The notes: generated by a model from the letters alone, not told the origin. 64,000 nucleotides of DNA from an uncultured delta proteobacterium (GCA_963792965.1 CAWBYW010000007.1:352001-416000); one strand, 5' to 3'; positions 2,759 to 55,931 are shown, counted from the stretch's first letter. Translations and numbers: made by a program.

Positions 2759-2768
2759 TAATTTCCTC

Positions 2769-3974
2769 CTACACCTTGTTGAGGAGATGGCCCATTTTAT
2801 CGCGCTTCGTCTTGAGGTATTCGATATTATTTTCGTGCGGCTCAATCTCGATAGGAACCTGCTCGATGACTTCGAGGTTGTACCCCTCCAGGCCGATGAT
2901 CTTCTTGGGATTGTTGGTCATAAGGCGGATCTTCTTGACACCGAGGTCGACGAGGATCTGCGCACCGATACCGTAATCGCGCAGGTCGGCCTTAAAGCCG
3001 AGCTTCTCGTTTGCCTCGACCGTATCGTATCCCTGGTCCTGGAGCTGGTATGCCTTGAGCTTGTTGGTGAGCCCGATGCCCCTCCCCTCCTGATTCATGT
3101 ATACCAGGACGCCTTTTTTCTCGGCGATGATCTTCTTAAGGGCCGACTGGAGCTGATCTCCGCAATCACACCGGAGCGACCCGAGGACGTCCCCCGTAAA
3201 GCAGGCGCTGTGAACCCGAACCAGCACCTCGTCCTCGGGCTTTATCTCTCCCATGACGAGGGCCAAGTGTTCGTGATCGTCGACGTCGGTCGTATACGCG
3301 ATCGCCTTGAATACACCGCCGAACTTCGTCGGAATCGCCGTCTCGGCGACCCGGTGTACGAGTGACTCGGTACGCATGCGGTACTCGATGATGTCCTTGA
3401 CGGTGGCGATCTTAATGTTGTGGAGCCTGGAGAATTCCTCAAGCTCCGGCATGCGCGCCATCGTCCCGTCATCCTTCATGACTTCGCAGATCACCCCGAA
3501 GGGATGCAGACCCGACAAACGTGCCAGGTCAACCGAACCCTCGGTCTGGCCGGTCCGCACAAGCACGCCACCCGCACGGGCGATGAGCGGAAAGACATGG
3601 CCGGGGTGTACAAGGTCTCCGGGCTTGGCATCGTCGGCAACCGCCGTCTTGATGGTCGTCGCCCGGTCGTAGGCCGATATGCCCGTCGTGACCCCGTGCC
3701 GCGCCTCCACCGAAACCGTAAACGCGGTTCCGAACTGAGAGGTATTGTCCCGAACCATGAGCGGGAGGTTCAGTGACCTCGCCTTTTCTTCGGTCAGCGA
3801 CAGGCAGATAAGTCCCCTGCCATACTTCGCCATGAAGTTGATCGCCTCGGGCGTCACCTTTTCCGCGGCCATCGTGAGGTCGCCCTCGTTCTCCCGCGAT
3901 TCGTCGTCGGTAAGGATGACGATCTTCCCGTCTCTGATGTCTTTAAGTATCTCCGGAACCGGTGAGATCGGCAT
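2769..3974 (-). CDS. ribBA: Bifunctional DHBP synthase / GTP cyclohydrolase II
   Basis: [46 protein letters not shown] motifs. Confidence 0.97.
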
Positions 3975-3978
3975 AGTG

Positions 3979-4632
3979 CTACTCCTGAGAATAACCCTCA
4001 TCTCTCAGCATTTCGAGGGTGATACCTTCGCCTTCGTTCGCTCTCCCCACCGTGAGGAGCCGCTGGATATACTTTCCGATGACATCGGTCTCGATGTTTA
4101 TATCCGCCCCCGGCTTCTTCGCCGCAAGGGTTGTCGTCTTTTCGGTATGCCCGATGATGTTGACGGTGAATCCTTCCGCCGTTAATGAGTTAATCGTCAG
4201 ACTGATACCGTCGACCGCTACCGATCCCTTGTCGATAAGATATCGCTTGACCACCGGGGGTACGCTGATTTCGATGATGAGGCCGCCGCCCTCCCGCGTC
4301 ACCCGTCTGATCGTCCCTACTCCCTCGACGTGCCCCTGAACGAGGTGGCCGCCGAGCCGGTCGGAAAGCCTCAGGGCCCGCTCGAGGTTGACGCGAGCGC
4401 CCGTCGACAGCCGTGCCAGGCTGCTGCGCGCGAGGGTCTCAGGGGTCGCCTCCACCGAAAACGAGCCTCCGGCCGTTTCCACGACTGTCAGGCATACACC
4501 GTCCATCGAGATGCTGTCACCGATTTTCGTGTCGGAAAGCACCAGCCCCGTCTCGATCGTCAAAATAAAAATGCCCCCCGCCCTTCGGACGGAGCGAATG
4601 GTCCCGATGTCCTCTATGATGCCGGTAAACAC
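3979..4632 (-). CDS. ribE: Riboflavin synthase (alpha chain)
   Basis: MFTGIIE N-terminus, [27 protein letters not shown]. Confidence 0.97.
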
Positions 4633-4677
4633 CGTCTGCTCCTGCTGGCCCGATCACGGACCTCGACGAGCGCGGCC

Positions 4678-5772
4678 TCACCTCGGACCCTCGCGGTAGG
4701 CCTCCACGACGAGATCCTCGCCAAGCCGTCGCACCGTCATGTTATTGAGCATAAAGGCGTCGGAAATCCTTTCCGGTCCCTTGCCGACGGTGAGGCCTAG
4801 GCTGTCCGCGCCCGTCAGGATCTTTGGGGCAAAAAATAATAATATCTTATTAAATATACCATTTTTAATAAAGTAAGTAAAGATATTTGCCCCCCCCTCA
4901 ACCAGGAGACTCATCACGTCTCGTTTGCCCAGCTCCACGAGCAGCTCCTCTATCTTCAGCATACCGTCCTTCCCCTTGGAAACACGAACGATATCGGCCC
5001 CCCGTTCCATCAGACCCGCCGCCCTTCGCGGGTCGGCGCCATCCCACGACACGATCAGGACCTTACCCGTCCCTTCCCTGAGCATCCGGGACGTCGGCGA
5101 CATTTCGAGCCCGGAATCGATCACCACGCGCATCGGGTCTCTGCCATTCACCATCCGGACGTTGAGCAGTGGGTCGTCCTTTTTCACCGTCCCGAGTCCG
5201 ACCATGACCGCATCCGATACCGCGCGGAGATGGTGCACGAGCCTCCGTGATTTCTCCGACGAGATCCATTTGGAGTCGCCCGTGGACGTGGCGAGTTTTC
5301 CGTCAAGCGTCATAGCTGCCTTCAGGGTGACGAACGGGAGCTTTTTCGTAACGAACGTGGTGTAGGCTTCGTAGAACCTCTCGACCCTGTCGCTCATGAC
5401 CCCGACCGTGACATCAAGTCCGGCCTTCCTCAGGATGTCGGCGCCGCCTCCCCGCACGTCGGGGTTCGGGTCCCTCATCCCGATGAAGACCCTCTTTATT
5501 GCCGAGGAGATCACGGCCTCGGTGCACGGGGGGGTGCGCCCGTAATGGCTGCAGGGCTCAAGCGTGACGTAGAGGTCCGCTCCCGTTACCGGCACAGAGC
5601 TGGTCGCAATGGCCCAGGCCTCCGCGTGGGGTTTGCCAGGCCCCTCGTGCGTCCCCTCGGAGATCACCTTTCCGTCGCGCACGATGACCGCGCCGACCGG
5701 AGGATTTGGGGAGGTCATCCCCCGATGCCGAGCGGCCAGGGAAAGCGCCCTCTTCATGAACTGGGAGTCCAC
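4678..5772 (-). CDS. ribD: Riboflavin biosynthesis deaminase/reductase RibD
   Basis: PNPPVGAV, HAE, TLEPCSHYGRTPPC, LDGKLAT, VEGGA motifs. Confidence 0.97.
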   Translation of the reverse strand: MDSQFMKRALSLAARHRGMTSPNPPVGAVIVRDGKVISEGTHEGPGKPHAEAWAIATSSVPVTGADLYVTLEPCSHYGRTPPCTEAVISSAIKRVFIGMRDPNPDVRGGGADILRKAGLDVTVGVMSDRVERFYEAYTTFVTKKLPFVTLKAAMTLDGKLATSTGDSKWISSEKSRRLVHHLRAVSDAVMVGLGTVKKDDPLLNVRMVNGRDPMRVVIDSGLEMSPTSRMLREGTGKVLIVSWDGADPRRAAGLMERGADIVRVSKGKDGMLKIEELLVELGKRDVMSLLVEGGANIFTYFIKNGIFNKILLFFAPKILTGADSLGLTVGKGPERISDAFMLNNMTVRRLGEDLVVEAYREGPR

Positions 5773-26699: not shown

Positions 26700-27541
26700 C
26701 TATATGCCTCCGTAGGTGAGGCCGCCGGAAACGAGAGAGTCGACGCGGCACGACAGGTCTTCGATCCTGAGGCCGCTCTGAATGCCAAACCGTGTCAGGG
26801 CAAAATCGTATTTCACCGGGTCGTCGGGCTCGATCTCGGAAAACCGAGCCGTTATTTCCATCGCCGCCGAAAAATCGGCCGACTTTCTGGCCGTAAACCC
26901 AAGCATCCCCGCGATACGGAACATATGGGTATCCAGCGGGACAACAAGGGACGCACGTGAGAGCCCCGCCCAGCCTCCCGGATCGATCTCATCGCATCGT
27001 GTCATCCACCGCAGGAAGAGGTTGAGCCTTTTCTTGGCGCTCTTTTTTTTATGGGACGGGATGAGGCTGTTGTAGTCATCCTCGAAAAAGGCGTTCAAAC
27101 CTTTCGCGAAACGATCCAGTGCCGGCATCACGGTCTGCCCCCGTCACCCAGGCCCGAGAGAAAGGCCGCGTTGAGGGAGCCGTGTCGCTCGATCAGAGCG
27201 CGTGCTCCCGTAAGCGTGAGGGCAAGCTCTCTGTCCGTCGTGAACCGGTGCTTGAATCCGGAAAATAGTGTGAGGAGGGCGTCGGAATCCGTCTCAATCA
27301 AGAACCGCCCGGGCCGATTCCCCATGGCGGAAAGAACCGCGGAAACGCTCTTCATGACCTGCGCTACCCGTCCATAGGCCAGCGAGGATGCGATCAGTCC
27401 CACGACCTCCCGGTCCCGCGGATCGTCATATCGATGAACGAACTCGATCGGATCGGGATGGATGAATTCCTTCCTGTTAAGGGTCCGATAGAGCTCCTCA
27501 AACAGGCCACGATAGCGCTGTGCTGTGGTATCTTTCACCAT
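26700..27541 (-). CDS. TIGR02757/DUF2400 family protein (HhH DNA-glycosylase-like); frameshift at the homopolymer 27138-27142
   Basis: PDPIEF, DREVVGLIASSLAYG; SAKKRLNLFLRWM, DPGGW, PLDTH, DPVKYDFAL. Confidence 0.88.
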
Positions 27542-29538: not shown

Positions 29539-30356
29539 ATGGAACGTCACTTTTCCGGGAAGATCGCCCTCGTCACCGGGGCCGGGAAAAAAAACGGTAT
29601 CGGCTTTACGATCGCTCGGCGTCTCTCGGAAAAAGGGGCCCGGGTCATTATCACGGATGTCTGCAAAGACCCTTGTATATGCCGATTACACCCGCTTCGG
29701 GACGATTGAGGAGCTTCAGACCCTCGCCAAAGAGATCGACGGCGATTCCCTCATGCTGGACGTCACCGATCAGAAGATGATCGACGGCGTTACGAATGCC
29801 GTCAGGGACCGCTTCGGCCGCCTCGACTTCCTCGTCAACAACGCCGGGGCCGCTCCTCAGCCAAACCTCCTTGGAATACACGGACCCCTCCATGTGGCAG
29901 AGGACCCTCGATGTCAACCTGAACGGGACGTTCCTGGTCACCCGCGCGCTGATCCCCCTGATGACGGGCGAGGGAGCCGCCATCGTAAATATCTCTTCCA
30001 AGGCCGGCAAGCGTCCACGCGCATTCGCCGGCGCCTACTGCGTCTCTAAGGCCGCCGTGATCATGCTGACGAAGGTCTTCGCCCTCGAGCTTGCCGCCCG
30101 GGGCATCCGGGTCAACGCGGTTTGTCCCGGGCAAATAGACACCGACCTCGAGCGCTGGTCGTGGGGGCTGGAAGCAAAATACTTCTCCAAGGACGTCAAA
30201 AAGGTCGAGGATGAAAAGAAAAAGAGCATCCCGCTGTGTCGTATCGGCATCCCCGAAGACGTTGCGGATGTGACGGCCTTTCTCCTCTCTCAGGAATCAT
30301 GTTACGTTACCGGCCAGACAGTCAATATCGACGGCGGCCAGCTTATGGAGGCATAG
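29539..30356 (+). CDS. Short-chain dehydrogenase/reductase; frameshifts near 29670 and 29872
   Basis: ATG 29539 MERHFSGKIALVTGAGKKNGIG; LVNNAG; NISS, YCVSKAA, VCPG, spread over three frames. Confidence 0.88.
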
Positions 30357-30368
30357 GAGGAACAGTCC

Positions 30369-32101
30369 ATGGCAACGGCGAATAAAAAGGAACCCGCGCG
30401 CGTCACGACGCCCGCGGCGGATAAAATGGTAACCGGCGGCGAGCTTGTCGTGAGGGCACTCGAGAAAAAGGGGGTTGAGTATATCTTTACGCTGAGCGGA
30501 GGGCACATCGCCCCGATCTACCAGCACCTGTTCGAGTCCGACATCAAGCTCTTTGACACGAGACACGAACAGGCGGCCGTCTTCATGGCCGATGCCTATG
30601 CACGGCTGACCGGCAGGCCCGGCGTGGCGCTGGTTACCGCCGGCCCCGGTTTTACCAACGCCGTCACCGGCGTCGCCAACGCGCGCATGGCGGGCACGCC
30701 CGTGGTCCTCCTCTCGGGGAGGATAGGGCTGAAGATGGACGAGCGGCTCGACCTGCAGGAGATCGAGCAGCGAAACGTCATCGCCCCCATCACAAAGTGG
30801 GCAAAGACCGTCACGAACGCGTCGCGCATCCCGGAATTCATTGACATGGCCTTCAAGATAGCCTCCTCGGGAAATCCCGGGCCCACCTTCCTCGAATTCC
30901 CCGTGGACGTGCTGACGACGAGCGCCGTCGAAGAGCACGTCAAGTTCCTCGACACCCCCTTCCCTCTCCGGTCGATGGGAGACCCAAAGGACATCGCGGC
31001 CGCTGCGGACCTGATCTTGTCCGCGAAACGCCCCATCATCGTCGCCGGGAGCGGCGCCCGCTTTTCGGGGGCCGACAGGTCCGTCAGCCAGCTTGTCGAC
31101 GCGACGGGGATTCCCCTCTTCACCCTCTCCATGGGCAAGGGGACACTGTCGGAGGATCACCCGCTCTGCTTCGGGCCGGCGCTTGTGATCCGTCCCGGCG
31201 CGGCGGGAGCGGCCGTCACGTCGGCCGACGTGATCATCCTGCTGGGCACCCGGATAAACCTCTTCACGATGTTCGGCGATATCTTTCCAAAAGACGCCAG
31301 GATCATCCAGGTCAACATCGACCCGGAGGAGATCGGCAGGAACAAGCATATCGACGCCGCGATAATGGGCGACGTGGGGCTGGTCGCGGGCCAGCTGCGG
31401 GAGGCACTTTCCGGGAAGCTGGAAAAGGACTCTTTTGCCGGCTGGGCCAAGGAGCTGATCAAGCAGCGCGACTTTTCCCTCGATTCGGTCAAGGGAAACC
31501 TCACCTCCGACAAGATCCCCATTCACCCCCAGCGTCTCATGCGGGAGATCGACGAGTTCATCGGAGACGACGGGATTGTCGTCGCCGACGGCGGCGACAC
31601 CTCCATCTGGATGGGGATGACACGGAAGACCTATTGCCACGGCGATTATCTCGAGTCCGGCCTCTTCGGATGCCTCGGGGTGGGAATCCCCTTCGCGCTG
31701 AGCGCAAAGCTCCTGAACCCGAAGAAGCGGTCATCCTCGTCACCGGCGACGGCTCGCTCGGCTTCAACTTCATGGAGCTCTCCACCGCCCTCCGCTTCAA
31801 GCTCCCGATCGTCGTCGTGGTAAGCAACGACCTCGGGTGGGGGATGATCCGCCACAGCCAGGGCCTCAAGTTCGGCCCCGGCAAAAATATCGCGACAGAG
31901 CTGGGGCTGGTCCCCTACCACAAGATGGTCGAGGCGATGGGCGGATACGGACAGCTCGTCGAAAAGCCGGGCGAGATAAAAGGCGCGCTGGCGCGTGCGT
32001 TCGACTCGGGAAAGGTCTCGCTCATCAATGTGCTGACCGACCCCGACGTGATCAGCCCCGGAAGTTATGCCCTGGCAAACATCGCCGCCTCGGCATATTA
32101 G
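30369..32101 (+). CDS. Thiamine-diphosphate-dependent enzyme (acetolactate synthase / 2-hydroxyacyl-CoA lyase-like); frameshift near 31728
   Basis: LSGGHI, RHEQAAVFMA, TAGPGFTN, GCLGVGIPF, then the GDGSLGF...ND ThDP-binding motif. Confidence 0.9.
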
Positions 32102-44932: not shown

Positions 44933-46090
44933 ATGGCGGGAAAAGACCATTACGACGTTATCGTTATCGGAGCCGGCCCCGGAGGACTCGGCGCGGGACT
45001 GGGCGCGCTTGAGGCCGGTGCCGACGTTCTCGTTGTCGAGAAGCAGCGCACCGTTGGTGATACCATCAAGGGCGAGACGATCCATCGAAACCAGGAGATG
45101 GAGCGGATCCTCGGGCCGGGCTTTTTCGATCGCAACACGATCGCTACCACCACCAGGCGTCGGTATTATTCTCCCACCGATTCCCGCTGGATCGACCGGG
45201 TTATCTCTGACCCGAACCTCATCTTCTTCTGGTCTGATTTCACGGACGATATGACGAGGCTGTCTCGGAAGAAGGGGCTCGACATCGCCTTCCAGACCGA
45301 GGTGATCGACCTCCTGGTGGAAGGAGGGCGCGTCGCCGGGGTGAAGGTGAGGCATGGAAAAGCGATACGCGAGCTGACCTGTCGGGTCGTCATCGGGGCC
45401 GACGGCACGGAGGGGATCACCTCGCGGGCCCTCGGCATCAGGCGGGACGCCATCGACTGCCCGGTCCTCAAGCTCCGCGTCGAGAAGATGGATTATCCCG
45501 ACATCCGCCTCGAATATTTTACCCACATCTACGCCGACGATCCGCCCTCGGTCGGCTACATCTTTCCGAGCGGAGAGGGAAAAGCCGACGTGGGGCTCCT
45601 CATCTTCAAACCCAACGCACGCAAAAACACGCCGATACCCGACGCACATAATGTCGGCGATTTTCTCGACCGTTTCATCGACAGACACCCTGTCTTCAGG
45701 GACCGGATGCGGACGGCAAAAGAGACCTACCGTCTCTTCACGATCATCCCCATGGGCGGCTTCATCGAGCGGTTCGTCCCCGCCCTCGGGGTTGTCATGG
45801 TGGGCGACGCGGCGGGCCAGGTTGAGGCCAAGGGCGGCAGCGGCATTGCCTCGTCGTTTCTCATCGGTCATCACGCGGGAGGGATCGCGGGCAGATTCGC
45901 CAAGGCAGGCCGTGCGTGGGATATGCGTCAGGCAAGGCGTATGGAGGCCGAGATCAAGACCCACCCCGCTTACGTCAAGGTGGCTTCATATTATCGCTAT
46001 ATCCGCCCGGTGCGCTCGCTCATGTTCATGATCCATAACGCCGAGACGGCCGACCGGCGCTTCGGGCTGATATCGAAGGTACTGAGGTAG
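44933..46090 (+). CDS. Geranylgeranyl-reductase-like FAD-dependent oxidoreductase
   Basis: YDVIVIGAGPGG, IGADG, GYIFP, IPMGG, VGDAAGQV...GGSGI. Confidence 0.85.
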   Translation: MAGKDHYDVIVIGAGPGGLGAGLGALEAGADVLVVEKQRTVGDTIKGETIHRNQEMERILGPGFFDRNTIATTTRRRYYSPTDSRWIDRVISDPNLIFFWSDFTDDMTRLSRKKGLDIAFQTEVIDLLVEGGRVAGVKVRHGKAIRELTCRVVIGADGTEGITSRALGIRRDAIDCPVLKLRVEKMDYPDIRLEYFTHIYADDPPSVGYIFPSGEGKADVGLLIFKPNARKNTPIPDAHNVGDFLDRFIDRHPVFRDRMRTAKETYRLFTIIPMGGFIERFVPALGVVMVGDAAGQVEAKGGSGIASSFLIGHHAGGIAGRFAKAGRAWDMRQARRMEAEIKTHPAYVKVASYYRYIRPVRSLMFMIHNAETADRRFGLISKVLR

Positions 46091-46207: not shown

Positions 46208-47380
46208 TTAGAATGCCTTCTTCAGGATATCCAGCGCCACATCAAAGGTGATCTCTTCCGGGTTTATCGTGCAGGAGCCGTCGTTGATGGCGGCCCTGGC
46301 GATATCGGGGAGCTGTTCCTTCTTCACACCCGCATCCGAGAGCTTCGTCGGCAGGCTGCTGGCCTTTTCGAGCTCCTTGCCGAGTTTCCTCACCGCGGCG
46401 ACGGTAGCCTTAGCGTCCTCAAGGGCCTTCCCCGTGGCGTGGGCTCCCATGAAAGGAGCGAGCTCTCCGATGATACCCGCCACCTTCTTGAAGTTATTTT
46501 CCATGCCGTACGGCAACAGGATCGCATTTGCCACCCCGTGGGGCACCCGGGCGACACCGCCCGTGGCGTGGGCCAGGCCGTGCACGACGCCGACCAGCGA
46601 GTTGGAGAATGCGGCGCCGGCGATCGTCGCGGCATTCAGCATCGCCAGCCTCGCCTCCTTGTCTTTCGGCTCCTTGACCGATTTGAGCAGGTACTCATGG
46701 ATGAGGCGGATAGCGGCGATGGCAAATCCATCCGAGACCGGGTTCTTGGCCAGGCAATAATAGGCCTCCATGGCGTGGGTCAGCGCGTCCATTCCGGTGG
46801 CGGCCGTGATCTTGGGGGGCATCGTCATGGTCATGCGCGGATCGAGGACGGCCGCCTTCGGGAAGAGCTTGCTTGAGGTGAAGGCCATCTTGGTGTGGCT
46901 CTTTTCATCATAGATGACCGCGGCGCTCGTGACTTCCGACCCGGTGCCCGCGGTCGTCGGGATGGCGATAAAGGGCATCATATCCTTCTCGAGCCGGTCG
47001 ACCCCCTGGAATTTCATGAGGTCGTCGGTCTTTTCCACGACGATCATATTGGCGCACTTGGCCGTGTCGATGACGCTCCCGCCGCCGACGGCGATGAACG
47101 AGTCGCACTTCTTGTCCTTGAACAATTTCGCGACCCGATTGACCACGCCGCTGCCGGAATCGGGTGGGGTCTCGTCGAAGATCACGCCGATCTTGATGTT
47201 GGAATCCGCGAATACCTCAGTCACCAGCTTGATGAGGCCGGCTTTTACGACGCCCTGATCGGTGACGACAAGCGGACGCTTTGCACCGAGGAGCGTCAGC
47301 TCATAGGGGAGGTTCGAGAGGGCCTTGAGGCCGCTCAGGATCTTAACCGGGCAGATGAATTCGTAATATTGGGGCAGCAT
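46208..47380 (-). CDS. Iron-containing alcohol dehydrogenase
   Basis: GGGSVIDTAK, PTTAGTGSE, DALTHAME, HGLAH, PHGVAN. Confidence 0.95.
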   Translation of the reverse strand: MLPQYYEFICPVKILSGLKALSNLPYELTLLGAKRPLVVTDQGVVKAGLIKLVTEVFADSNIKIGVIFDETPPDSGSGVVNRVAKLFKDKKCDSFIAVGGGSVIDTAKCANMIVVEKTDDLMKFQGVDRLEKDMMPFIAIPTTAGTGSEVTSAAVIYDEKSHTKMAFTSSKLFPKAAVLDPRMTMTMPPKITAATGMDALTHAMEAYYCLAKNPVSDGFAIAAIRLIHEYLLKSVKEPKDKEARLAMLNAATIAGAAFSNSLVGVVHGLAHATGGVARVPHGVANAILLPYGMENNFKKVAGIIGELAPFMGAHATGKALEDAKATVAAVRKLGKELEKASSLPTKLSDAGVKKEQLPDIARAAINDGSCTINPEEITFDVALDILKKAF

Positions 47381-47417: not shown

Positions 47418-47960
47418 CTACTTCGTCGCGCTCAGCGCCATGTCTATTCCCATGGTGAGGTAGACATAGAGCTTGAAAAGCTTCTGCTTGAGCGTGAGCC
47501 TTGGCGGCAGCTTGAATACCTTCTTAAAGACGATCCCCGGCAGGAGATAGGCCTGGACGATCCCCATCGCTCGGTTGGCCCTGATGCCGTCGGTCACGTT
47601 CCCGTGCAGCAGCGCCCGATGCTGGATAAACGCCACGTGAGATCCCATCTGCGCGGTAAACGGCAAAAAGGCGCAGTCCACGTTCTTGAAGAGGATCTTG
47701 ACGTCCGGTTTCTTATACCCCCTGCCGAGGTAACGGATCGCCCCGTTTTCCTCCTTGAGCGATATAGCCGGTCCCTTGGGGAGGACGCCGAGCGAGATGA
47801 CGATCCCCTTTTTCCAGTCTTTGATCTCCTCCTTGAGCTCGGCGCTGTGACGGGAAACCTTCTCGAAGGTGACCCCGAGGGCGAGGAGCGCGATGCTTAC
47901 GACCGTCTTTTTGAGTCGATACGATAAGGAAGGTTTGAGAGTATCCGTTCGTTCTTCCAT
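47418..47960 (-). CDS. Hypothetical protein, possibly SCP2 (lipid-carrier)-like fold
   Basis: 180-aa ORF with RBS, directly upstream of the Fe-ADH; the fold guess comes from the beta-rich PDVKILFK...LLHGN pattern and is inference only. Confidence 0.6.
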   Translation of the reverse strand: MEERTDTLKPSLSYRLKKTVVSIALLALGVTFEKVSRHSAELKEEIKDWKKGIVISLGVLPKGPAISLKEENGAIRYLGRGYKKPDVKILFKNVDCAFLPFTAQMGSHVAFIQHRALLHGNVTDGIRANRAMGIVQAYLLPGIVFKKVFKLPPRLTLKQKLFKLYVYLTMGIDMALSATK

Positions 47961-48120
47961 ATATATCCCCTTATAAAATTAAATAAGTGTCACTCACCTG
48001 GCGGGCATTATATCATTCAAGATACAAGTTTCAATATAAATGTAAACGGATCTCCCCATTATTTCGACCAGCATCTCACCTATTTTTGCACAAAGCCGTC
48101 CATCGTTTTAGAAAAATATC

Positions 48121-48161
48121 TTGACATGCCTCTGCGTTTCCGTTATCTTCAAGTTGAACTT
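48121..48161 (+). promoter_or_regulatory. Sigma70 promoter with a palindrome over the start site
   Basis: TTGACA (48121-26), 17 bp, TATCTT (48144-49); AAGTT-G-AACTT at 48151-48161. Confidence 0.7.
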
Positions 48162-48182
48162 TATGCTTTAAGCTTTCATATT

Positions 48183-48884
48183 ATGCCCATCAAGATCAGT
48201 GAGCTGGGGCGGATCACCGGAGTCCCGCAGTCCACCATTCGATACTACGTCAAGGAAGGGATCCTCCCCAAACCGACCAAGGTCAACAAGTCGATGGCCT
48301 ACTACGATGAATCGTGCATCGAGCGGATCGCCCTCGTGCGCGAACTCCAGGAAAAGAAATACTACCCGCTGTCCGTGATCCGAAACATCATGTCGCGTAT
48401 GGACAGCGGAATTGATATCTCCTCCCTCCTGTCGCTTGAAGACGCCATATTCGGCCCGCGGACCCAGGGCGACCAGCGCCTCCTCACAAGAGAGGAGTTC
48501 CTGGCCGCAACCGGTATCGAGGAACAGCTCCTGACAGCGGCCGAATCGCTCGGGATTATCATCCCCTACAACAGGGGGACCAAGAAGCCGTATAACCAGG
48601 AGGATGTGATTTTTACCAGGAGTATCATCAAGGGAAGCAATGAGCTCGGCATCGACATTCATGAGATAACCTTCTATGTGGAGTTCGGCAAGAAGATCGT
48701 CGAGGAAGAAATACGGCTGAGGAAGAAGATCGTGGCGGGTAAAAACAAGGATGAGAACATCAGGATCACCGCAACTCTCTCCGAGCACGCCGATGAGCTC
48801 AGGGGCTATATCCTGCGCAGGCTCTTCCAGTCCAAGGTCAAGGAGATGATGGAAAAATCGAAAGAGAAAAAATCCTCACCGTAA
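48183..48884 (+). CDS. MerR family transcriptional regulator
   Basis: IKISELGRITGVPQSTIRYYVKEGILP...YYD HTH; a second degenerate HTH (LTREEFLAATGI). Confidence 0.9.
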   Translation: MPIKISELGRITGVPQSTIRYYVKEGILPKPTKVNKSMAYYDESCIERIALVRELQEKKYYPLSVIRNIMSRMDSGIDISSLLSLEDAIFGPRTQGDQRLLTREEFLAATGIEEQLLTAAESLGIIIPYNRGTKKPYNQEDVIFTRSIIKGSNELGIDIHEITFYVEFGKKIVEEEIRLRKKIVAGKNKDENIRITATLSEHADELRGYILRRLFQSKVKEMMEKSKEKKSSP

Positions 48885-48908
48885 TAGTCCTCGTTCCCCT
48901 GGAGGTGA

Positions 48909-50540
48909 ATGATGAAAACTCACGTACTTACTTTCCGTAATCTGATCATACTCATTATCGTCCTGGCGTTGTTCCCCACCAGCGGGTGCTCAGAGAGAAA
49001 ACGTCCTACCTTTAAAGCTCAGTACGACGTCATTATCATCGGCGGCGGTATGGGCGGCCTGTCCGCGGGGGCGCACCTCGCGTCCAAGGGCCTCAAGGTG
49101 CTGCTCCTTGAACAGGACCATAAGGTCGGCGGCTGCACAACGAACTTCAAACGGGGGGACTTCACGTTCGAAGTGGCCCTCCACGTCATGGCCGGGGGAC
49201 TGCCGGAAAGGAACGGCGCCCTCTATCAGCTCATGAAGGCGTGCGGCGTCGACAAGAAGGTCACCATCTACCAGCTTCCCGAATTATACCGATCGATCTA
49301 CCCCGATATCGACATCACGCTCCCCGCGGCGTCCTGGGATGCCTACAAGACGACACTCAAAGAACGATGGCCCAGCGAGTCGGCCGGCATTGATAAATTC
49401 CAGCTCCTTTGCGGACAGGTCATGAGCGAAATCATGTCGATAAAGGACCTCTTCCGGGAAACCGGGTTCAGGGCTTTCCTCACCAAGGCGCAGATCCCCT
49501 TCAAAGAGAGGACCCTTTTTAAGTGGAAGGATAAAACCCTCAAGGACACGATGGACGAGTGTTTCAAGGATGACAAGCTGAAGGCCGTCATGTCCCAGCT
49601 CTGGATGTACTACGGCGGGCCGGCGGACGACCAGACGTCTCTCATGAATTTCGCCGCCACCGAGATGTTCCTGACCGACGGCGTATGCCACGTCAGGGGA
49701 ACCTCTCAGGCCCTCTCCGACGCCTATGCCGACCGGATCAGGGAGCTCGGCGGTGAGGTAAAGACCGGGACACTCGTCACAAAGATTATCATGAAAGACG
49801 GCCTGGCGCGCGGCGTCGAAACGGAATTCGGAGACACGTACACGGCCCGCTATATCGTCTGCAATACCGATCCCTACCAGATGGTATTCAAGCTGATCGG
49901 CGAGGAAAACCTGCCCAAGGATTATGTCAAGAAGATCAAAGGAATGAAGCCGGCAAACTCGTTGTTCGGGGTCTACCTCGGGCTGAACATAGACCTGAAG
50001 AAGCTCGGCTATAAGGACACGGATATCATCTACAACAAGTCTTACAGCTCAAACGTCATATACGATAAGTGGATGAGGGGAGACATCAAGAACAGCGCCT
50101 GTCTCATCGGGATTTACAGCAATTACGGCGATCCGATCTACGCACCGCCGGGAAAATCGCTCGTCTCTCTGCTGGTCTACAGCAACTATGACCTCTGGCC
50201 CAAGGATCACGACGAATATCAGAAAATGAAAGAAGAAAAGGCCGACGAGCTGATCGCCCTGGCCGCAGAGGTCATACCGGAGCTTGCAGATCCCAAGAAT
50301 ATCGAGGTCAAAGAAACCGTTACGCCGGCAACACTGGCCGAGTTCACCAAGAACTACCAGGGCGTCCCCTACGGCTTCTACATGAGCCTTGACCAGTGGC
50401 AGAAGATACCCAACTATACCCCCATCGACAATGTCTTCATCGCCAGCAACTGGACACAGGGATTCCACGGGGTCGGCGCGGGACAGGTTAACGGGTGGCA
50501 GGCAGGGCGCCTCATCCTCGACCGGGAGGGCATCGAGTAG
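48909..50540 (+). CDS. Phytoene desaturase / retinol saturase family FAD oxidoreductase, predicted lipoprotein (paralog 1)
   Basis: Hydrophobic signal ending TSG-C27; YDVIIIGGGMGGL, KVGGCTTNFKRGDFTFE, APPGKS, TPAT, C-terminal HGVG. Confidence 0.88.
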   Translation: MMKTHVLTFRNLIILIIVLALFPTSGCSERKRPTFKAQYDVIIIGGGMGGLSAGAHLASKGLKVLLLEQDHKVGGCTTNFKRGDFTFEVALHVMAGGLPERNGALYQLMKACGVDKKVTIYQLPELYRSIYPDIDITLPAASWDAYKTTLKERWPSESAGIDKFQLLCGQVMSEIMSIKDLFRETGFRAFLTKAQIPFKERTLFKWKDKTLKDTMDECFKDDKLKAVMSQLWMYYGGPADDQTSLMNFAATEMFLTDGVCHVRGTSQALSDAYADRIRELGGEVKTGTLVTKIIMKDGLARGVETEFGDTYTARYIVCNTDPYQMVFKLIGEENLPKDYVKKIKGMKPANSLFGVYLGLNIDLKKLGYKDTDIIYNKSYSSNVIYDKWMRGDIKNSACLIGIYSNYGDPIYAPPGKSLVSLLVYSNYDLWPKDHDEYQKMKEEKADELIALAAEVIPELADPKNIEVKETVTPATLAEFTKNYQGVPYGFYMSLDQWQKIPNYTPIDNVFIASNWTQGFHGVGAGQVNGWQAGRLILDREGIE

Positions 50541-50752
50541 TCAGGACACCTGAGAGGAAAAGAAAGGCGCTGCGTCCGGCCTCGCCAGGCGAGCGCCTGC
50601 CGGCCGGCAATTGATCACTCGTCCTTAGGTAAGGAGCGCATCGACTCCACCTGGCACCGGCGCGCCGGCTGAGTCTTCTCTGCGAGAGATCCGGTTTTTC
50701 TGCTTTCGTTTTGAACGGATTTGTATATACTGCGTCCATCGTGAGGTGTACC

Positions 50753-52368
50753 ATGAACAGACCACGCCACATCGCGACAATCGTCATCATCTTTGTCATC
50801 TCTCTTTCGCTTCTCATCAGCACCCGGGTGCGCGCAAGAAGCGCCCTGATTTCAAGGCCCAGTACGACGTCATCATCGTCGGCGCCGGCATGGCGGGGCT
50901 CTCGGCCGGCGCGCACCTTGCCAGTAACGGCCTCAAGGTCCTGGTCCTCGAACAGCACCACAAGGTCGGAGGCTGCACGACCAATTTCAAGCGGGGCGAC
51001 TTCACCTTCGAGGTGGCGCTGCACGAGCTGGCCGGCGGCGGCCTCTTCCAGCTCATGGACCTCTGCGGCGTAAAACAGAAGGTTAAGCTCTATCCGCTCC
51101 CCGACCTCTACCGCTCGATCTTCCCGGGCGATCCTACCGTCGATATGACGATGCCGGCCAACTGGAAGGGATGGGACGATACCCTCAAAAAGAAATGGCC
51201 CGAGGAGTCCGAGGGAGTCGATAAGCTGCACAGGCTCTCCACGCAGGTCTTTGCCGACATCATGGACGTGAAGGACCTCTTCCGCTATAGCGGCCCGAAG
51301 GCCTTCTTCAAGACGCTCTCCGTCCCCATTAAGCATCCGGCCCTCGTCAAATGGAGCAGGAGGACCTTACAGCAGCTCCTTGACGAGTGCTTCAAGGGTG
51401 AAGACATCAAGGCCGTCGTCTCCCAGTTCTGGGTCTACTACGGCGCCCCGATCCCCGACGAGATCGCCATCTTCTCTCTGGCCGCCAATGAGGTCTTCCT
51501 CACCGAAGGCGCCTGGCACGTCATGGGCACGTCCCAGGCCCTCTCCAACGCCTACGCCGAGCGTATCCGTGAGCTCGGCGGGGATGTCAAGACCGGTACC
51601 CTCGTCACGAAGATTATCATCGAAAACGGCATGGCCACCGGAGTCGAGACCGAGTTCGGCGAAAAATACACGGGCCGCTATGTCCTGGCCGACACCGATC
51701 CCTACCAGCTCATCTACAAGCTCGTGGGAGAAAACAATTTGCCGAAAAGCTACGTGAAAAAGGTCAAATCCCTCAAACCGGCCAACTCCCTGTTCGTCAC
51801 CTACCTCGGCCTGAATATCGATCTCAAGAAATTGGGCTACAAAGACACCGAGATATTCTACAACACGTCAAAAGACTCCGTGGCCGTATACAACAACATG
51901 ATGAAGAATGACTTCAAGGACGGGATGGTCTCCATCACGATCTACTCAAACTACGGCGACCCGATCTACGCCCCGCCCGGCAAATCGGTCGTGGCGCTCC
52001 TTGAATTTTCCGATTACGACAGCTGGCCCAAGGATTATGACAGCTACCAGCAGATGAAAGACGACAAGGCCAAGGAGATCATCGATCTTGCCGCAAAGGT
52101 GATCCCCGAGCTTGCCGATCCTAAAAACATTGAGGTCAAGGAAGTCATGACTCCGCTGACGCTCGAGGAATTCACGATGAACTATCACGGGATCCCGTAC
52201 GGCTTCTACCTCGACACCAAGCAGTGGAAGAAGATCCCGATTAATACCCCGATTGATAATCTCTTCATCGCGTCAAGCTGGACCCAGTCATGGCACGGGG
52301 TGGGATCGGCTCAGATCAACGGCTGGATGGCCGCTCGTCTCATCATGGATCGGGAGGGCATCAAGTAG
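50753..52368 (+). CDS. Phytoene desaturase / retinol saturase family FAD oxidoreductase, probable lipoprotein (paralog 2); frameshift(s) near 50822-50835
   Basis: GAGGT RBS and ATG 50753 MNRPRHIATIVIIFVISLSLLIST; a GGG-TGC (G-C) codon pair lies out of frame; mature frame KKRPDFKAQYDVIIVGAGMAGL. Confidence 0.85.
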
Positions 52369-52485
52369 TTAAGCCCGCGCGTGACCGGGCTAACCGATAT
52401 TTTCAGGTTATGTCCCCTGCGGTTGTCATGGGGGCAAGACAATAGTAACGAGAGACTTCATTCATCCTATTGCAGGAGACAACCG

Positions 52486-54116
52486 ATGAGAAAGAAACAT
52501 ACTATTTCGCAAACGATTTTCGTCCTCTTTCTCGCCCTGACCTTCCTCATCGCCACGGGATGCGCCGAAAAAAAGCCTCCCACCCATAAGGCGCAGTACG
52601 ATGTCATCATCATCGGCGGCGGTATGGGGGGACTCTCCGCCGCGGCTCACCTGGCCACCAAGGGCCTCAAGGTGCTTCTGCTTGAGCAGCACCAAAAAGT
52701 GGGCGGCTCCACGAGCAACTTCACGCGCGGCGCATTCACGTTTGAGACCGCCCTCCACGAGATGGCCGGCGGCGGACCCGGCAAGCAGGACCGCGCCCTC
52801 TTTAAGCTCCTGGCCGCCTGCGGGGTCGACAAGAAAGTCCGGCTCTACGAGCTGCCCGATTTCTACCGCTCCGTCTACCCCGGCGGTGTTGACGTCACGA
52901 TGCCCAACAACTGGGACGGCTGGGACAAGACCCTCAAGGACAAATGGCCCGAGGAAGCATCCGGCATCGACACGTTCCACGCGCTCTGCTCCGGCATGAT
53001 GAATGATTTCCTGTCGATGAAGAACCTCTTCCGGTATTCCGGCCTCAGGGCTTTCCTCACGAAGGCGCAGGTCCCTCTTAGGCAGAAAACATTCTTCCAC
53101 TGGAAAGACAAGACGCTCAAGGAGCTGATGGACACATGCTTCAAGGGCGAGGACATCAAGGCCGTGGTCTCGCAGCTCTGGGTCTACTACGGCGCACCCG
53201 TTCCCGATGAGACCGCCCTGCTGCTCTTGGCCGCCACCGACGGTTACCTCACGGACGGCATCTGGCACATCAAGGGAACCTCCCAGGCCCTCGCCAACGC
53301 CTATGCCGATCGGATTAGAGAGCTCGGAGGCGTCGTGAAGACCGGGGAGCTCGTTACAAAGATCACCATGAAAGACGGCGTGGCCACCGGGGTCGAGACC
53401 GCGCTGGGAAACACCTATACCGGCCGGTATATCGTCGCCAACACGGACCCCTATCAGCTCGTCTTCAAGCTGATCGGACAGGAGAATCTCCCCAAGGACT
53501 ATGTCCAGAAAATCAAGGATATGAAGCCCGCCAACTCTCTGTTCGGCGTCTACCTCGGGCTCAACATCGACTTGAAAGCCAGGGGATATAAGGACACCGA
53601 GATCATCTATAACACCAGCAAGGACAGCACCGTCCTCTACGACAACATGATGAAAGGTGATTTCGCAAACGGCGCCACCACCATCACCATCTACAGCAAC
53701 TATGGCGACCCCATCTACGCGCCTCCCGGTAAGTCGGTCGTGGTGCTCCACTCCTACTCGGACTACAATATCTGGCCGAAAGATCAGGAAGAGTACCTGG
53801 CCATGAAGGAAAAGAAGGCCCAAGAGCTGATTACGCTTGCGGCCAACATGGTGCCGGAGCTTGCCGATCCGAAGAACATCGAGGTAAAGGAGGTCGTCAC
53901 GCCGGTAACTCTTAAGGAGTTCACCATGAACGAGGACGGCATCGTTTACGGCTTCTATATGAATCCCGCGCAGTGGCAAAAGATCCCCAACGACACACCG
54001 ATCGATAACGTCTTTATCGCCAGCAACTGGACCCAGGCTGGCACGGCGTCGGCTCCTGCCAGGTCAACGGATGGAGGGCCGCACGGCTCATACTTGACAG
54101 AGAAGGTATCGAATAA
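52486..54116 (+). CDS. Phytoene desaturase / retinol saturase family FAD oxidoreductase, predicted lipoprotein (paralog 3); frameshift near 54036
   Basis: GGAG RBS, MRKKHTISQTIFVLFLALTFLIATG-C26; same core motifs; adding one G restores WHGVGSCQVNGWRAARLILDREGIE-stop, as in the paralogs. Confidence 0.88.
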
Positions 54117-54130
54117 GAGTGGAGGAAAAT

Positions 54131-54520
54131 ATGAAAAGGAATACAATCATACTGCTTTTGGCCGTGGGCGCCCTCTTCCTGTTTTTCATGGGCGTTGCGG
54201 CGTTCTCAATCGAGAAAACACCGACGACGGTGATGATCGAGGATACTACAAAGGCCACCGACCGGTATCTCGGGGTCGACTTCAAGCACGAATACCACAT
54301 CACAACCCTCGGCATCACCTGCGTCACGTGCCACCATGCCGAGAAGAAGGGTTTCGTTTCCGGAACGCCCGCCCGCTGCGAGGTCTGCCACAAGGCCGAC
54401 GCCGCCATCACCTTCAAGGATGCGATGCACAAGAATTGCGTCATCTGCCACATCAACGAGACCGCCAAAGGGAAAAAGCCCCCGACGGAGTGCCTCGGGT
54501 GCCATACCCAGAGGAAGTAA
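54131..54520 (+). CDS. Tetraheme cytochrome c3 (class III), periplasmic
   Basis: Signal peptide; FKHEYH, CVTCHH, CEVCH, MH, CVICH, CLGCH give 4 heme sites plus 4 distal His; GGAGG RBS. Confidence 0.93.
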   Translation: MKRNTIILLLAVGALFLFFMGVAAFSIEKTPTTVMIEDTTKATDRYLGVDFKHEYHITTLGITCVTCHHAEKKGFVSGTPARCEVCHKADAAITFKDAMHKNCVICHINETAKGKKPPTECLGCHTQRK

Positions 54521-54529
54521 CCGAGCTTT

Positions 54530-54555
54530 CCGACCCCCTCTCAAGAGGGGGTCGG
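54530..54555 (+). terminator. Perfect 11-bp hairpin after cytochrome c3 (terminator or stabiliser; no U tract)
   Basis: CCGACCCCCTC-TCAA-GAGGGGGTCGG. Confidence 0.6.
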
Positions 54556-54692
54556 TCCCCCTCCCCTGTTGTCCGCCCCGTGTGGAGGAAAACCCACGCT
54601 CCCCCGCAATGGATACAAAAGCGTTTCTCTTTTTTGCTTTATCAAGGCCGCGTTTTGTAGTATAAATTGACCATGTCGCTAAAGATTACCGA

Positions 54693-55022
54693 ATGAAGCG
54701 AGCCGATATTATTTTTCTCATCGCGGTGGTTGCCCTGATCGGCTCCGCTTTTCTCCTTTTCGAGATCCTCGCCACGCCCGCGGGAAAGACGGTCGCCATC
54801 GAGGAGGGAAACGAGGTAGTGGGTAACTACCCCCTCTCCGAGGATCGGACGATCAAGGTCCAGGGCCCGCTCGGCATCACCACCGTGGTAATTAAAGGCG
54901 GCCAGGTCTATGTGTCGGACTCGCCCTGTCCGAACAAGATCTGTATTGAAATGGGGCACATTTTTGAAAAGGGAGACACTATTGTCTGTCTCCCTAACCG
55001 TGTTTACATCACCATACGCTGA
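54693..55022 (+). CDS. NusG domain II (DUF1312/Lin0431-like) membrane-anchored protein
   Basis: N-terminal TM helix starting MKRADII; SPCPNKICIEMG...IVCLPNRV signature. Confidence 0.88.
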   Translation: MKRADIIFLIAVVALIGSAFLLFEILATPAGKTVAIEEGNEVVGNYPLSEDRTIKVQGPLGITTVVIKGGQVYVSDSPCPNKICIEMGHIFEKGDTIVCLPNRVYITIR

Positions 55023-55931
55023 TGACAAGCCGCTTGACAAAATCCCGCGCAAAATGCCGATCGGTACCGGGAAGTCGGGCGTACCCCTCCCTACGCATAC
55101 GTGCATCCATACTCCTTCTTCTCTCTTTTGTCTTTCTTCCTCTGTTTGTGGAAGTCGGCTGCGCCCCTACGTCCGCCCTCGCGTGGAACCGCAGGGGCCT
55201 GGACTATTACCGGCACGGTGATCTCGACCGGGCTCTCGCGTCGTATACCGAGGCCATCAGACTCTCCCCCGACCTCGCCGCCGCCTACTATAACCGCGGC
55301 GCCCTCTATCGGAAGTTATCGCGCCCAACAGACGCGAGGGCGGATTTCTCAAAGGCCCTGGAGCTTGGACCCGAACTACGCCGACGCCTATTTCGCCCGT
55401 GGCGGCCTCTTTCTTGAACAGCGGCGCTTTGGGGCCGCATGCGGCGACTTCACACGCGTCATCGAACTACGCCCGGATCGGGCAGATGTGTATCTCCTGC
55501 GGGGAAGCGCGCTCACCGAATTGGAGCGCTATGACGAGGCCGCCGCCGACTTCGAGGCCGCCCTCCGCTTGGGCCCGGAAGACCCTGGCGCGTTCATGAC
55601 ACGAGGCGAGTTCAAATTCAAGAGAGGCCGATACGACGACGCGGTAGCCGACTATACAAAGGCGCTGTCGCTCAGCCCCGGTCTCGTGAAGGCCTATCTT
55701 TTGCGGGGAACCGCATACGAATACGGGCTGTCGCGGCCGGATGCGGCGTTGACCGACTACACCGAGGCCATCTCGATAGATCCGAAAGACCCCACGGCCC
55801 GCAACTTTCGGGGAAATCTCCTCAGAAAGCTCGGGAAGAGTGAGGATGCCCTGGCGGATTTCAAGGCGATTTGCGATATGGGCTATTCATTCGGCTGCTG
55901 GCAATACGAGTGGCTGACGGGCGGGAATTGA
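55022..55931 (+). CDS. TPR-repeat protein, possible lipoprotein; frameshift near 55367
   Basis: Hydrophobic stretch ending VG-C; repeated AYYNRG / ADFSKALEL-type TPR units; ACDMG-like C-terminal cap. Confidence 0.82.

Follow-up and report, generated by a model that had tools for sequence, protein, structure and literature searches.

Tandem CrtI-like flavoenzymes with conserved, putative export leaders and a linked tetraheme cytochrome c3 in an uncultured delta proteobacterium

Three tandem genes for CrtI-like flavoenzymes, followed by a gene for a small tetraheme cytochrome c3, were found in the genome of an uncultured delta proteobacterium, an anaerobic, sediment-dwelling organism, and they represent a conserved and uncharacterised pairing of such enzymes with a four-heme cytochrome of their own. 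We propose that they encode an exported flavoenzyme-c3 module that would most likely reduce double bonds of hydrophobic substrates in a cytochrome-poor, non-sulfate-reducing host, a reading that, taken as a whole, we give about an even chance of being correct. The window analysed here is a stretch of 64,000 nt (GCA_963792965.1 CAWBYW010000007.1:352001-416000), and positions are counted from its first nucleotide. An earlier note on this DNA had described the cluster as a candidate new periplasmic C=C redox system; its proposals of export, a link to c3 and no part in the cell's own carotenoid synthesis gain comparative support in the following analysis, while that of c3 as a general carrier does not fit the genome and that of a new system goes too far.

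The gene cluster and its flavoenzymes

The reported gene order is real: a MerR gene, three PF01593 paralogs of ~540 aa, the gene of a tetraheme c3 and a hairpin of 11 bp follow one another on the plus strand. The MerR-family regulator (233 aa, 48183..48884, ATG 48183, with an alternative longer frame from 48126) matches MerR_1 with 69.1 bits, shows no B12-binding domain in a profile search, and is separated from paralog 1 by the 24 bp originally given (48884 vs 48909). A MerR gene is also directly upstream of family genes at three related loci (L012, L013 and L017). The sigma-70-like promoter match upstream of MerR (TTGACA-17-TATCTT, 48121..48149, plus strand) is a consensus match only, agreeing at 10 of 12 positions, and seven such sites are present in the region compared with 3.6 expected from shuffles. 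The perfect, G+C-rich hairpin with its 4-nt loop (54530..54555, plus strand) lies 10 bp past the c3 stop and folds at -33.6 kcal/mol (z -3.66), with none of 200 shuffles equally stable; there is no T-run downstream of it and no canonical plus-strand terminator is listed within 47900-54800. A geranylgeranyl-reductase-like gene is found nearby at 44933-46090.

Paralog 1 is an intact flavoenzyme of 543 aa (48909..50540, plus strand), and its translated leader, like that of paralog 3 (52486..54116, plus strand, ATG 52486), ends as claimed, in T-S-G-C and A-T-G-C, respectively, with the motif Y-D-V-I-I-I-G-x-G starting 11 residues past the Cys. The other two enzyme genes are broken as assembled. 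In paralog 2 (50753..52368, plus strand) a frameshift in the leader at ~50822-50835 leaves the leader (ATG 50753) out of frame with the enzyme body (50746-52368). The suggestion that correcting one indel restores S-T-G-C does not hold as worded, since two single-base changes are needed to bring S-T-G-C into frame with the enzyme: removal of one base yields S-T-G-C but also a stop nine codons past the Cys, and addition of one base joins leader and enzyme but the Cys is lost. In the paralog 2 orthologs at L011, L012 and L015 the leader is unbroken and contains a Cys. Paralog 3 has a 1-nt deletion at ~54037, as shown by alignment with its orthologs at L012, L015 and L013, that shifts the last ~26 codons, and the 14-bp distance to c3 is correct only if this frameshift is read through to the TAA at 54114-54116, not for the gene as assembled. 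The original observation is thus confirmed in its layout but not in the repair of paralog 2, the integrity of paralog 3 or the lipobox of paralog 1 (see below).

All three paralogs are members of Pfam Amino_oxidase (PF01593; 87.6, 68.3 and 66.3 bits, cut-off 19.8). Their top NCBIfam matches are crtI_fam TIGR02734 (127.7, 115.6 and 110.9 bits, cut-off 238.1), the CRTISO model TIGR02730 (126.3, 114.6 and 129.2 bits, cut-off 586.9) and the CrtD model TIGR02733 (124.9, 119.6 and 125.1 bits, cut-off 549.7), all of which fall far under the curated cut-offs. Among solved structures, the nearest are CrtI (4dgk, E 1.9e-20) and 4rep (TM 0.77/0.84). The AF2 model of paralog 1 (pLDDT 92.6) has a leader helix at residues 2-23 that is connected by a low-confidence linker to a Rossmann strand at residue 38, and its best fold match is the CrtD-like structure 4rep, with NicA2 at rank 4 (TM 0.53). 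Within the amine-oxidase superfamily, the paralogs belong to the branch that holds CrtI, CrtD and CRTISO. His91, in F-x-x-x-L-H, is invariant across the family, and its spacing, which resembles that of the CtmAB flavinylation motif, is only a lead; that motif itself (G-F-[LR]-x-[NS]-[TL]-H-A), whether strict or relaxed, is absent from every frame of the genome.

Putative export leaders and the linked cytochrome

The leaders were compared across 120 homologs, including the window proteins, of which 115 are full-length and five are truncated or frameshifted, using a lipobox rule of the PROSITE PS51257 type (15-40 residues from a basic N-terminus). Every one of the full-length homologs (115/115) has a basic, hydrophobic leader with basic residues among the first ten. 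Within the set of 120, the strict lipobox is present in 72 and a Cys at the same site in 25 more, and 18 have an AxA-type (signal-peptidase-I-type) site without Cys, followed by an acidic mature N-terminus. The twin-arginine motif ([ST]-R-R-x-[hydrophobic]-[hydrophobic]) is absent from all 120, in agreement with the earlier note, and the same genome does use Tat, as the small subunit of its hydrogenase carries the canonical S-R-R-E-F-I-K. All nine distant paralogs in this genome lack a leader and begin at the Rossmann motif. The conservation of the leader, the interchange of lipobox and signal-peptidase-I-type sites, and the lack of a leader in the distant paralogs support extracytoplasmic targeting, and, with the same even confidence as the proposal of which this is part, most of the homologs would be lipid-anchored at the Cys and some would be soluble. 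As to the window proteins being lipoproteins, paralog 3 passes the strict rule, paralog 1 fails it because of a Pro at -4, and paralog 2 as assembled has no in-frame Cys. The non-canonical lipobox of paralog 1 counts against export, as does a conserved basic cluster (K-K-R-P-like) after the Cys, which in E. coli would disfavour the Sec pathway. Flavin would presumably be loaded after export, and this is no paradox given the precedent for FAD outside the cytoplasm provided by Bfe, the FAD exporter described for Shewanella (PMC3551548).

The c3 (129 aa, 54131..54520, plus strand, ATG 54131) has an N-terminal signal or anchor and four CxxCH motifs, and it matches Cytochrom_CIII (PF02085) with 41.4 bits (cut-off 22.9). 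Across 13 orthologs there is no variation in the eight Cys, in the four His of the motifs or in four further His (H53, H56, H69 and H100), the pattern expected of a class III tetraheme c3 with bis-His ligation. Its score with the model of the acidic tetraheme c3 TmcA (NF045722) is 50.5 bits, under the cut-off of 114. An ortholog of this c3 is directly downstream of a family gene at 11 of 65 related loci, in eight genomes, with three enzyme-c3 pairs at a single locus (L013), and the remaining neighbours vary among these loci. In the family tree the c3-linked rows are in one clade of 20 rows (SH-aLRT 90), and a c3 link is seen as well on the two branches that split off deepest (L054 and L075). 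Across 401 genomes sampled from the phylum, matches to the c3 of at least 99 bits are confined to the taxonomic family of the window, where they are present in eight of nine other genomes in addition to its own, and the enzyme gene is upstream at all nine c3-profile loci, compared with none of 21 generic c3 loci. The c3 neighbour is retained in other genomes only in part: the 54 of 65 loci with no adjacent c3, mainly in Smithellaceae, Desulfobacterales and Spirochaetota, show that the cytochrome is not obligatory for the enzyme family and count against an exported module. A search for a fused enzyme-c3 protein, a weak test, found none. The recurrence of the pair in different neighbourhoods and on deep branches argues for a dedicated functional link, and conserved neighbours with leaders on both proteins are what would be expected of a periplasmic flavoenzyme-cytochrome c pair. 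The c3 may well be dedicated to the enzymes and have co-evolved with them, exchanging electrons with their flavins, to the same even degree of confidence.

Electron flow and rival explanations

Phytoene/squalene synthase (PF00494), which a functional CrtI would call for, is not found in the scanned window ORFs, as had been noted, nor in the whole 88.85%-complete genome, nor in any of the ten genomes examined from the taxonomic family, of which six reach at least 90% completeness; a control search gave hits in 8 of 14 named genomes. This supports the view that the enzymes do not serve carotenoid synthesis by the cell itself. The view of c3 as a general periplasmic carrier is at odds with this genome, since dsrA was not found in the genome and there are only two c3-family genes. 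Only four ORFs in the genome have two or more CxxCH motifs, among them a c3 beside ResB/CcsA and a 196-aa membrane tetraheme protein with a marginal NapC/NirT match. There is also a group-1 NiFe uptake hydrogenase with a cytochrome b subunit. We envisage a scheme in which MerR would regulate the operon, and the three flavoenzymes would leave the cytoplasm by their Sec-type leaders and exchange electrons with the co-encoded c3. The direction would most likely be reductive because c3-type hemes are of low potential and C=C/C-C couples are near 0 mV. Electrons from H2 or quinol would pass through a few membrane or periplasmic cytochromes to c3, possibly via the hydrogenase, the 196-aa tetraheme protein and the c3 beside ResB/CcsA, and from c3 to the flavin for the saturation of C=C bonds in exogenous isoprenoids or polyenes, or in envelope lipids.

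The same exported module could instead run oxidatively, dehydrogenating or hydroxylating a reduced substrate, which might be an amine or the allylic carbon in a sterol or terpenoid, and passing electrons through c3 to hydrogenase or the quinone pool. The characterised anaerobic COG1233 relatives, limonene dehydrogenase CtmAB and a delta-24 sterol desaturase, are described as oxidative (PMC4109377, PMC11061730), which counts against a reductive direction, and the PF01593 enzymes NicA2 and Pnao are reported to give electrons to cytochrome c (PMC9396064). NicA2 is also the rank 4 fold match, but the fold is much nearer to 4rep (TM 0.77 vs 0.53), and the covalent-flavin motif of CtmAB is missing here. 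Moreover, the low potential of c3 hemes makes them ill suited to accept electrons from C-H oxidation couples and, with no dsrA and only four multiheme cytochromes, the genome has no evident high-potential sink, so we regard oxidation as unlikely. A redox-neutral reaction, in which CRTISO-like enzymes carry out cis/trans isomerisation or double-bond shifts of envelope lipids on the periplasmic side and c3 merely keeps the flavin reduced, seems to us improbable. CRTISO does require reduced FAD with no net redox, a heme-containing fatty-acid cis-trans isomerase of the periplasm exists, a lipid anchor would keep the enzyme at the membrane surface, some homologs bear the JGI name prolycopene isomerase, and TIGR02730 is among the top matches at 126-129 bits (114.6 for one paralog). 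However, these scores are far under 586.9, a co-evolving tetraheme partner, present in as many as three pairs at one locus, is a costly means of doing no more than prime a flavin, and soluble signal-peptidase-I-type homologs exist.

Two further possibilities concern whether there is a working exported module at all. The interruptions in two of the three enzyme genes, which count against our proposal, could be real mutations in a decaying cluster where only paralog 1, and perhaps c3, still works, and in keeping with this a c3 gene that follows the paralog 2 ortholog at L011, L012 and L015 is missing from the window, and the two break sites have no coverage in public reads. The assembly is, however, indel-prone: unrelated window genes are split too (a TPR lipoprotein at 55022-55931 and DUF2400 at 26703-27541), as is a fourth paralog on C13. 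Past the break in paralog 3 the shifted frame still aligns with orthologs to the stop, the split-gene loci (L011, L015, L062 and L066) all have 'contig_' names, as does L014, which is whole, and the other loci checked (L012, L013, L017 and L060) are intact. Decay is thus quite improbable in our estimation. We think it highly improbable that the leaders are uncleaved anchors of cytoplasm-facing enzymes in lipid or pigment biosynthesis, which would make the c3 adjacency mechanistically meaningless. Basic residues after the hydrophobic segment and the geranylgeranyl-reductase-like gene would fit, and the characterised CrtI-type enzymes that we know of all act from the side of the cytoplasm, plastid or ER. 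Against this, a classical, cleavable signal of the AxA type, followed by an acidic mature N-terminus, is present in 18 of 120 homologs, enzyme and c3 are strictly paired (9/9 vs 0/21) and stay so across unrelated neighbourhoods, phytoene/squalene synthase was not found in any of the ten family genomes, and c-type cytochromes mature outside the cytoplasm.

Relation to known systems

By analogy, the proposed exported flavoenzyme-c3 module is kindred to the periplasmic flavoenzyme-cytochrome pairs NicA2-CycN and Fcc3. To call it a new system is too strong, since there are known cases of periplasmic PF01593 enzymes that use a cytochrome c neighbour: in Pseudomonas putida S16, NicA2 and Pnao are reported to use CycN rather than O2 as redox partner (PMC9396064). 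The likeness is that of a PF01593-superfamily flavoenzyme beside a c-type cytochrome, here at the level of the genes, although NicA2 is an electron donor that oxidises an amine. NicA2 is exported by Tat and its partner has a single heme, while the enzymes described here are of the CrtI/CrtD branch with a tetraheme class III partner and a Sec or lipoprotein leader. Fcc3 (FccA) of Shewanella, a periplasmic flavin C=C reductase fed by a c3-like tetraheme unit, is similar to what we propose in combining C=C reduction, a tetraheme and a flavin outside the cytoplasm. In Fcc3 the parts are fused into one polypeptide, which belongs to the fumarate-reductase (FAD_binding_2) family and has a soluble dicarboxylate as substrate, in contrast to the separate genes and different fold family here.

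In sequence and fold, the best relatives are CrtI, CrtD and CRTISO, from which the paralogs differ in their low model scores and in a lineage without phytoene synthase. We know of no export leader or cytochrome partner described for the characterised enzymes, and our literature search found no paper on a CrtI-type form with both. RetSat, a polyene C=C saturase of the same superfamily, is an ER enzyme with, to our knowledge, no c3 partner, and it is similar by source names only, several homologs being named all-trans-retinol 13,14-reductase by JGI. CtmAB and the delta-24 desaturase are likewise phytoene-dehydrogenase-like flavoenzymes; they are described as acting oxidatively on isoprenoid skeletons without O2, with acceptors given as ferredoxin or as unknown (PMC4109377, PMC11061730), and as heterodimers with FMN bound covalently to the His of a flavinylation motif (PMC11061730) that is absent here.

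Gene cluster and assembly quality

We consider it quite probable that the three tandem PF01593 flavoenzymes of the window (paralogs 1–3) form an exported redox module with the tetraheme class III cytochrome (c3) encoded downstream. The module itself, with its conserved leader and conserved, co-evolving c3, is well supported. The window corresponds to C7:352001-416000 in a genome of 3.36 Mb (42 contigs, completeness 88.85%), and all genes of the cluster are on the plus strand. It opens with a MerR-family gene (48183-48884; MerR_1, 69.1 bits), followed after a 24-bp gap by the intact paralog 1 (48909-50540, 543 aa), paralog 2 (enzyme frame 50746-52368, with the leader ATG at 50753 in a different frame), paralog 3 (from the ATG at 52486 to the TAA at 54114-54116 after read-through) and, 14 bp beyond that stop, c3 (54131-54520; 129 aa, four CxxCH motifs, Cytochrom_CIII 41.4 bits, cut-off 22.9). 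A hairpin with a perfect 11-bp stem is present at 54530-54555 (−33.6 kcal/mol, z −3.66, with none of 200 shuffles as stable) and has no T-run 3′ of it. One promoter-like site was found upstream of MerR, and no terminator-like sites were seen on the plus strand inside the cluster. The MerR protein lacks a B12-binding domain, which rules out a light/B12 regulator of the CarH type.

Several neighboring genes deserve mention in their own right. A 109-aa membrane-anchored NusG_II-domain (PF07009) protein is encoded after c3 and past the hairpin (54693-55022), as it is 3′ of c3 in the related locus L011 (16211-16537) and the more distant L017 (14189-14515). Divergent from MerR is a gene for a 180-aa protein (47418-47960, minus strand) that matches neither Pfam nor NCBIfam and that occupies the same position in L011, L012, L015, and L066; adjoining it are genes for an Fe-alcohol dehydrogenase (46208-47380) and a geranylgeranyl-reductase-like flavoprotein (44933-46090). 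At ~43 kb from the flavoenzyme cluster, and with no link to it, the window also contains a complete operon for riboflavin biosynthesis (1693-5772, minus strand; ribD, riboflavin synthase, ribBA, lumazine synthase, and nusB).

Of the three enzyme genes, only paralog 1 is whole as assembled; paralogs 2 and 3 are broken. In paralog 2, one added base unites the leader and enzyme frames but without a Cys, one removed base yields S-T-G-C and then a stop nine codons past the Cys, and two removed bases put S-T-G-C in frame with the enzyme, and hence the correction of a single indel from which an earlier note on this DNA had obtained S-T-G-C is insufficient. The leader DNA of paralog 2 aligns too divergently with that of three orthologs to tell which indel is erroneous. 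Compared with three orthologs, paralog 3 lacks 1 nt at ~54037, past which the shifted frame aligns with them up to the TAA. Many other genes are likewise split, such as those for a TPR lipoprotein (55022-55931), a DUF2400 protein (26703-27541, in two ORFs covering profile positions 1-100 and 112-224), and a fourth paralog elsewhere in the genome (G000:C13:3-1476); window positions 29796-31820 are also among the genes split or shortened by frame changes. The only related loci with split genes are L011, L015, L062, and L066, all with ‘contig_’ names; L014 is named in the same way, yet its genes are whole, and genes are intact in L012, L013, L017, and L060, which are named otherwise. The assembly looks indel-prone from these sequences, and the breaks in paralogs 2 and 3 are probably assembly indels. 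A look for public sequencing runs gave two DNA runs from one study (each with 0.06 of the sampled words) and no RNA run, and the DNA runs yielded short contigs outside ~50822-50835 and ~54037.

Enzyme family and probable export leader

All three paralogs are matched by Pfam Amino_oxidase, and their top NCBIfam matches (crtI_fam, carotenoid isomerase, and CrtD) score ~110-130 bits, well under the respective curated thresholds (238, 587, and 550). For a profile of 45 homologs the closest solved sequence is CrtI 4dgk (E 1.9e-20), and the AlphaFold2 model (pLDDT 92.6) has as its best fold match the CrtD-like 4rep (TM 0.77/0.84); CrtI, monoamine oxidases, and NicA2 rank next. The paralogs are a separate subfamily within the CrtI/CrtD/CRTISO branch and lie outside every curated equivalog. 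Two more PF01593 paralogs, close together on opposite strands (G000:C18:145366-149549), have 24-27% identity to paralog 1 and are without leaders.

In the AlphaFold2 model residues 1-23 are helical, with a low-confidence linker between this helix and the Rossmann strand (residue 38). We surveyed the leaders of the best 120 homologs (57-100% identity), of which 115 are full-length, and every one of these 115 has a leader with basic residues within the first ten. The lipobox by which the enzymes had been read as lipoproteins is present in strict PROSITE-type form in 72 of the 120. Another 25 fail the rule in spite of a Cys at the homologous position; paralog 1, with its Pro at −4, is one of them, and four others are better taken as A-x-A sites. 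A further 18 are Cys-less with a signal-peptidase-I-type site and an acidic mature end; five are shortened or frameshifted. Orthologous enzymes alternate between lipobox and A-x-A at one position, a pattern for which it is difficult to account if the segment does not act as a genuine export signal that is cleaved. A Tat-like motif was found in none of the 120, an absence that is meaningful because the hydrogenase small subunit of the same genome carries a textbook S-R-R-E-F-I-K. Nine more distant paralogs of this genome start right at the GxGxxG motif.

Pairing of enzyme and cytochrome

A four-heme c3 is encoded immediately 3′ of a family gene in 11 of 65 related loci from public genomes, representing eight genomes, and is frameshift-split in L011, L062, and L066. 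The surroundings of the pair vary, with MerR preceding the enzymes in the window, L012, L013, and L017, a PAS histidine kinase gene after the pair in L014, L060, and L062, and unrelated genes on its flanks in L054 (a Myxococcota MAG) and L075 (an unclassified bacterium). In L013 (2154-10655, a Thermodesulfobacteriota MAG) MerR is followed by three enzyme-c3 pairs in succession; an acetyl-CoA hydrolase/transferase gene lies between pairs one and two and an aldehyde:ferredoxin oxidoreductase gene upstream. The two most distant pairs (c3 at L054:11548-12075 and L075:11607-12086) have a long low-complexity linker between leader and c3 domain, and the L054 leader terminates in a lipobox-like A-S-L-C; judged by these features, both c3 proteins look like tethered electron shuttles.

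The 13 c3 sequences are orthologs, with eight heme Cys, four motif His, four more His, and a T-x-A-T-x-R-Y before the first heme all invariant. When 401 genomes sampled across the phylum were searched with the c3 profile, matches of at least 99 bits were confined to Zymogenaceae (eight of the nine other genomes plus that of the window), and the remaining matches reached at most 88 bits. An enzyme gene is directly upstream at 9/9 of the high-scoring loci and within 1.5 kb at 0/21 of the generic c3 loci.

In a maximum-likelihood tree of 72 enzyme rows, the c3-linked enzymes of the main group all fall in one 20-row clade (SH-aLRT 90), 18 rows of which are in operons with c3, and the two deepest branches are likewise c3-linked. 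The c3 neighbor pointed out in the window recurs in other genomes, but not in a 48-row clade (Smithellaceae, Syntrophales, Desulfobacterales, and Spirochaetota), where none is c3-linked. This distribution tentatively suggests that the pairing is ancestral, and only tentatively because the tree was built by a quick method and has flagged long branches. Paralogs 1–3 represent three separate orthologous groups, and in L011, L012, and L015 a separate c3 accompanies the paralog-2 type, a c3 that the window lacks. Clustering of all neighbor ORFs in the 65 loci gave no other conserved partner for the c3-less clade, with 9-12-heme cytochromes near the enzyme in only five loci (L018, L035, L052, L053, and L070). 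A search of longer proteins with the c3 query gave no fused enzyme-c3 protein, only one unrelated 537-aa multiheme protein, which is weak evidence.

Proposed electron supply and direction, and known systems

Phytoene/squalene synthase (PF00494) was found in none of the ten Zymogenaceae genomes searched (that of the window and nine others, six of the ten at least 90% complete), with a control search positive in 8/14 named genomes. Carotenoid biosynthesis was thus rejected as the function, and it is very unlikely that the enzymes take part in carotenoid or squalene chemistry of the cell itself. No dsrA was detected in the genome, which has only two c3-family genes, and only four of its ORFs have at least two CxxCH motifs, each having four. 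Besides the window c3 (54131-54520), these are the second c3-family gene (G000:C4:145479-145739; L076:7468-7905), directly upstream of ResB/CcsA, the genes of system II cytochrome c maturation; a 196-aa membrane tetraheme (G000:C32:14097-14699; L078:6110-6700) with a hydrophobic segment at its N-terminus and matches to c554 and, marginally, to NapC/NirT (~24 bits), a candidate quinol dehydrogenase that could feed c3; and a 454-aa protein with a tetraheme part at its C-terminus. A group-1 NiFe uptake hydrogenase operon (G000:C41:751-4376; L110) encodes small and large subunits, a cytochrome b subunit, and a maturation protease, and the small subunit combines its Tat motif with a C-terminal anchor. 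Because a NiFe hydrogenase with cytochrome b, a membrane tetraheme, and c3 are all encoded, a chain can be drawn in which electrons from H2 would pass via the uptake hydrogenase to quinol, from quinol to the membrane tetraheme, then to the dedicated c3, and finally to the flavin of the flavoenzyme.

The reductive direction, that of a saturase, is favored because c3-type hemes are of low potential, the potentials of C=C/C-C couples are close to 0 mV, and the genome shows no evident high-potential sink. That the enzyme is a C=C reductase is possible, at somewhat less than even chances, and we put the combined statement of an exported flavoenzyme-c3 module and a C=C reductase at about even. A conserved basic cluster lies C-terminal to the Cys of the leader, and in E. 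coli such a cluster after the hydrophobic segment would hinder Sec export; an anchor facing the cytoplasm, with c3 adjacent by chance, fits the leader and locus data poorly. The main rival is the same module run oxidatively, which would be akin to limonene dehydrogenase CtmAB (PMC4109377), to sterol delta-24 desaturase (PMC11061730), or to NicA2 and Pnao with CycN (PMC9396064). A CRTISO-like isomerase, with c3 serving only for priming, comes second.

The reductive reading might extend to a new class of respiratory reductase, which we regard as unlikely in its entirety: lipid-anchored periplasmic CrtI-type ene-reductases, supplied by the H2-to-flavin chain, through which cytochrome-poor, fermentative, non-sulfate-reducing Desulfobacterota would dump electrons on sediment isoprenoids or lipids with C=C bonds. 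Separate paralogs would serve different substrates, and flavin would be taken up after Sec export, perhaps covalently on His91, which is invariant across the enzyme family. In its F-x-x-x-L-H spacing this residue is reminiscent of the motif reported to bind flavin covalently in CtmAB and the delta-24 desaturase, a likeness that is only a lead, since a search of the window's genome gave no instance of the CtmAB-type motif.

If true, the module would offer a candidate path by which isoprenoids and unsaturated lipids are converted anaerobically, probably by saturation, in anoxic sediments and digesters, a process evident geochemically for which few enzymes are known. It is small (one enzyme and one 100-residue cytochrome) and present in many MAGs, and is therefore amenable to direct expression and assay. 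Periplasmic flavoenzyme-cytochrome modules in general are already well known, and a full-text literature search turned up no account of a CrtI-family enzyme that is exported or linked to a cytochrome such as c3. All characterized members of the CrtI/CRTISO/RetSat branch that we know of act in the cell or organelle, on its own polyenes, and an exported form with its own tetraheme cytochrome would, if true, carry the CrtI-type fold into extracytoplasmic redox chemistry. It would also be the second natural case, after the Shewanella flavocytochromes, of a flavoprotein acquiring its cofactor after Sec export, for which the Shewanella FAD exporter Bfe (PMC3551548) is a precedent.
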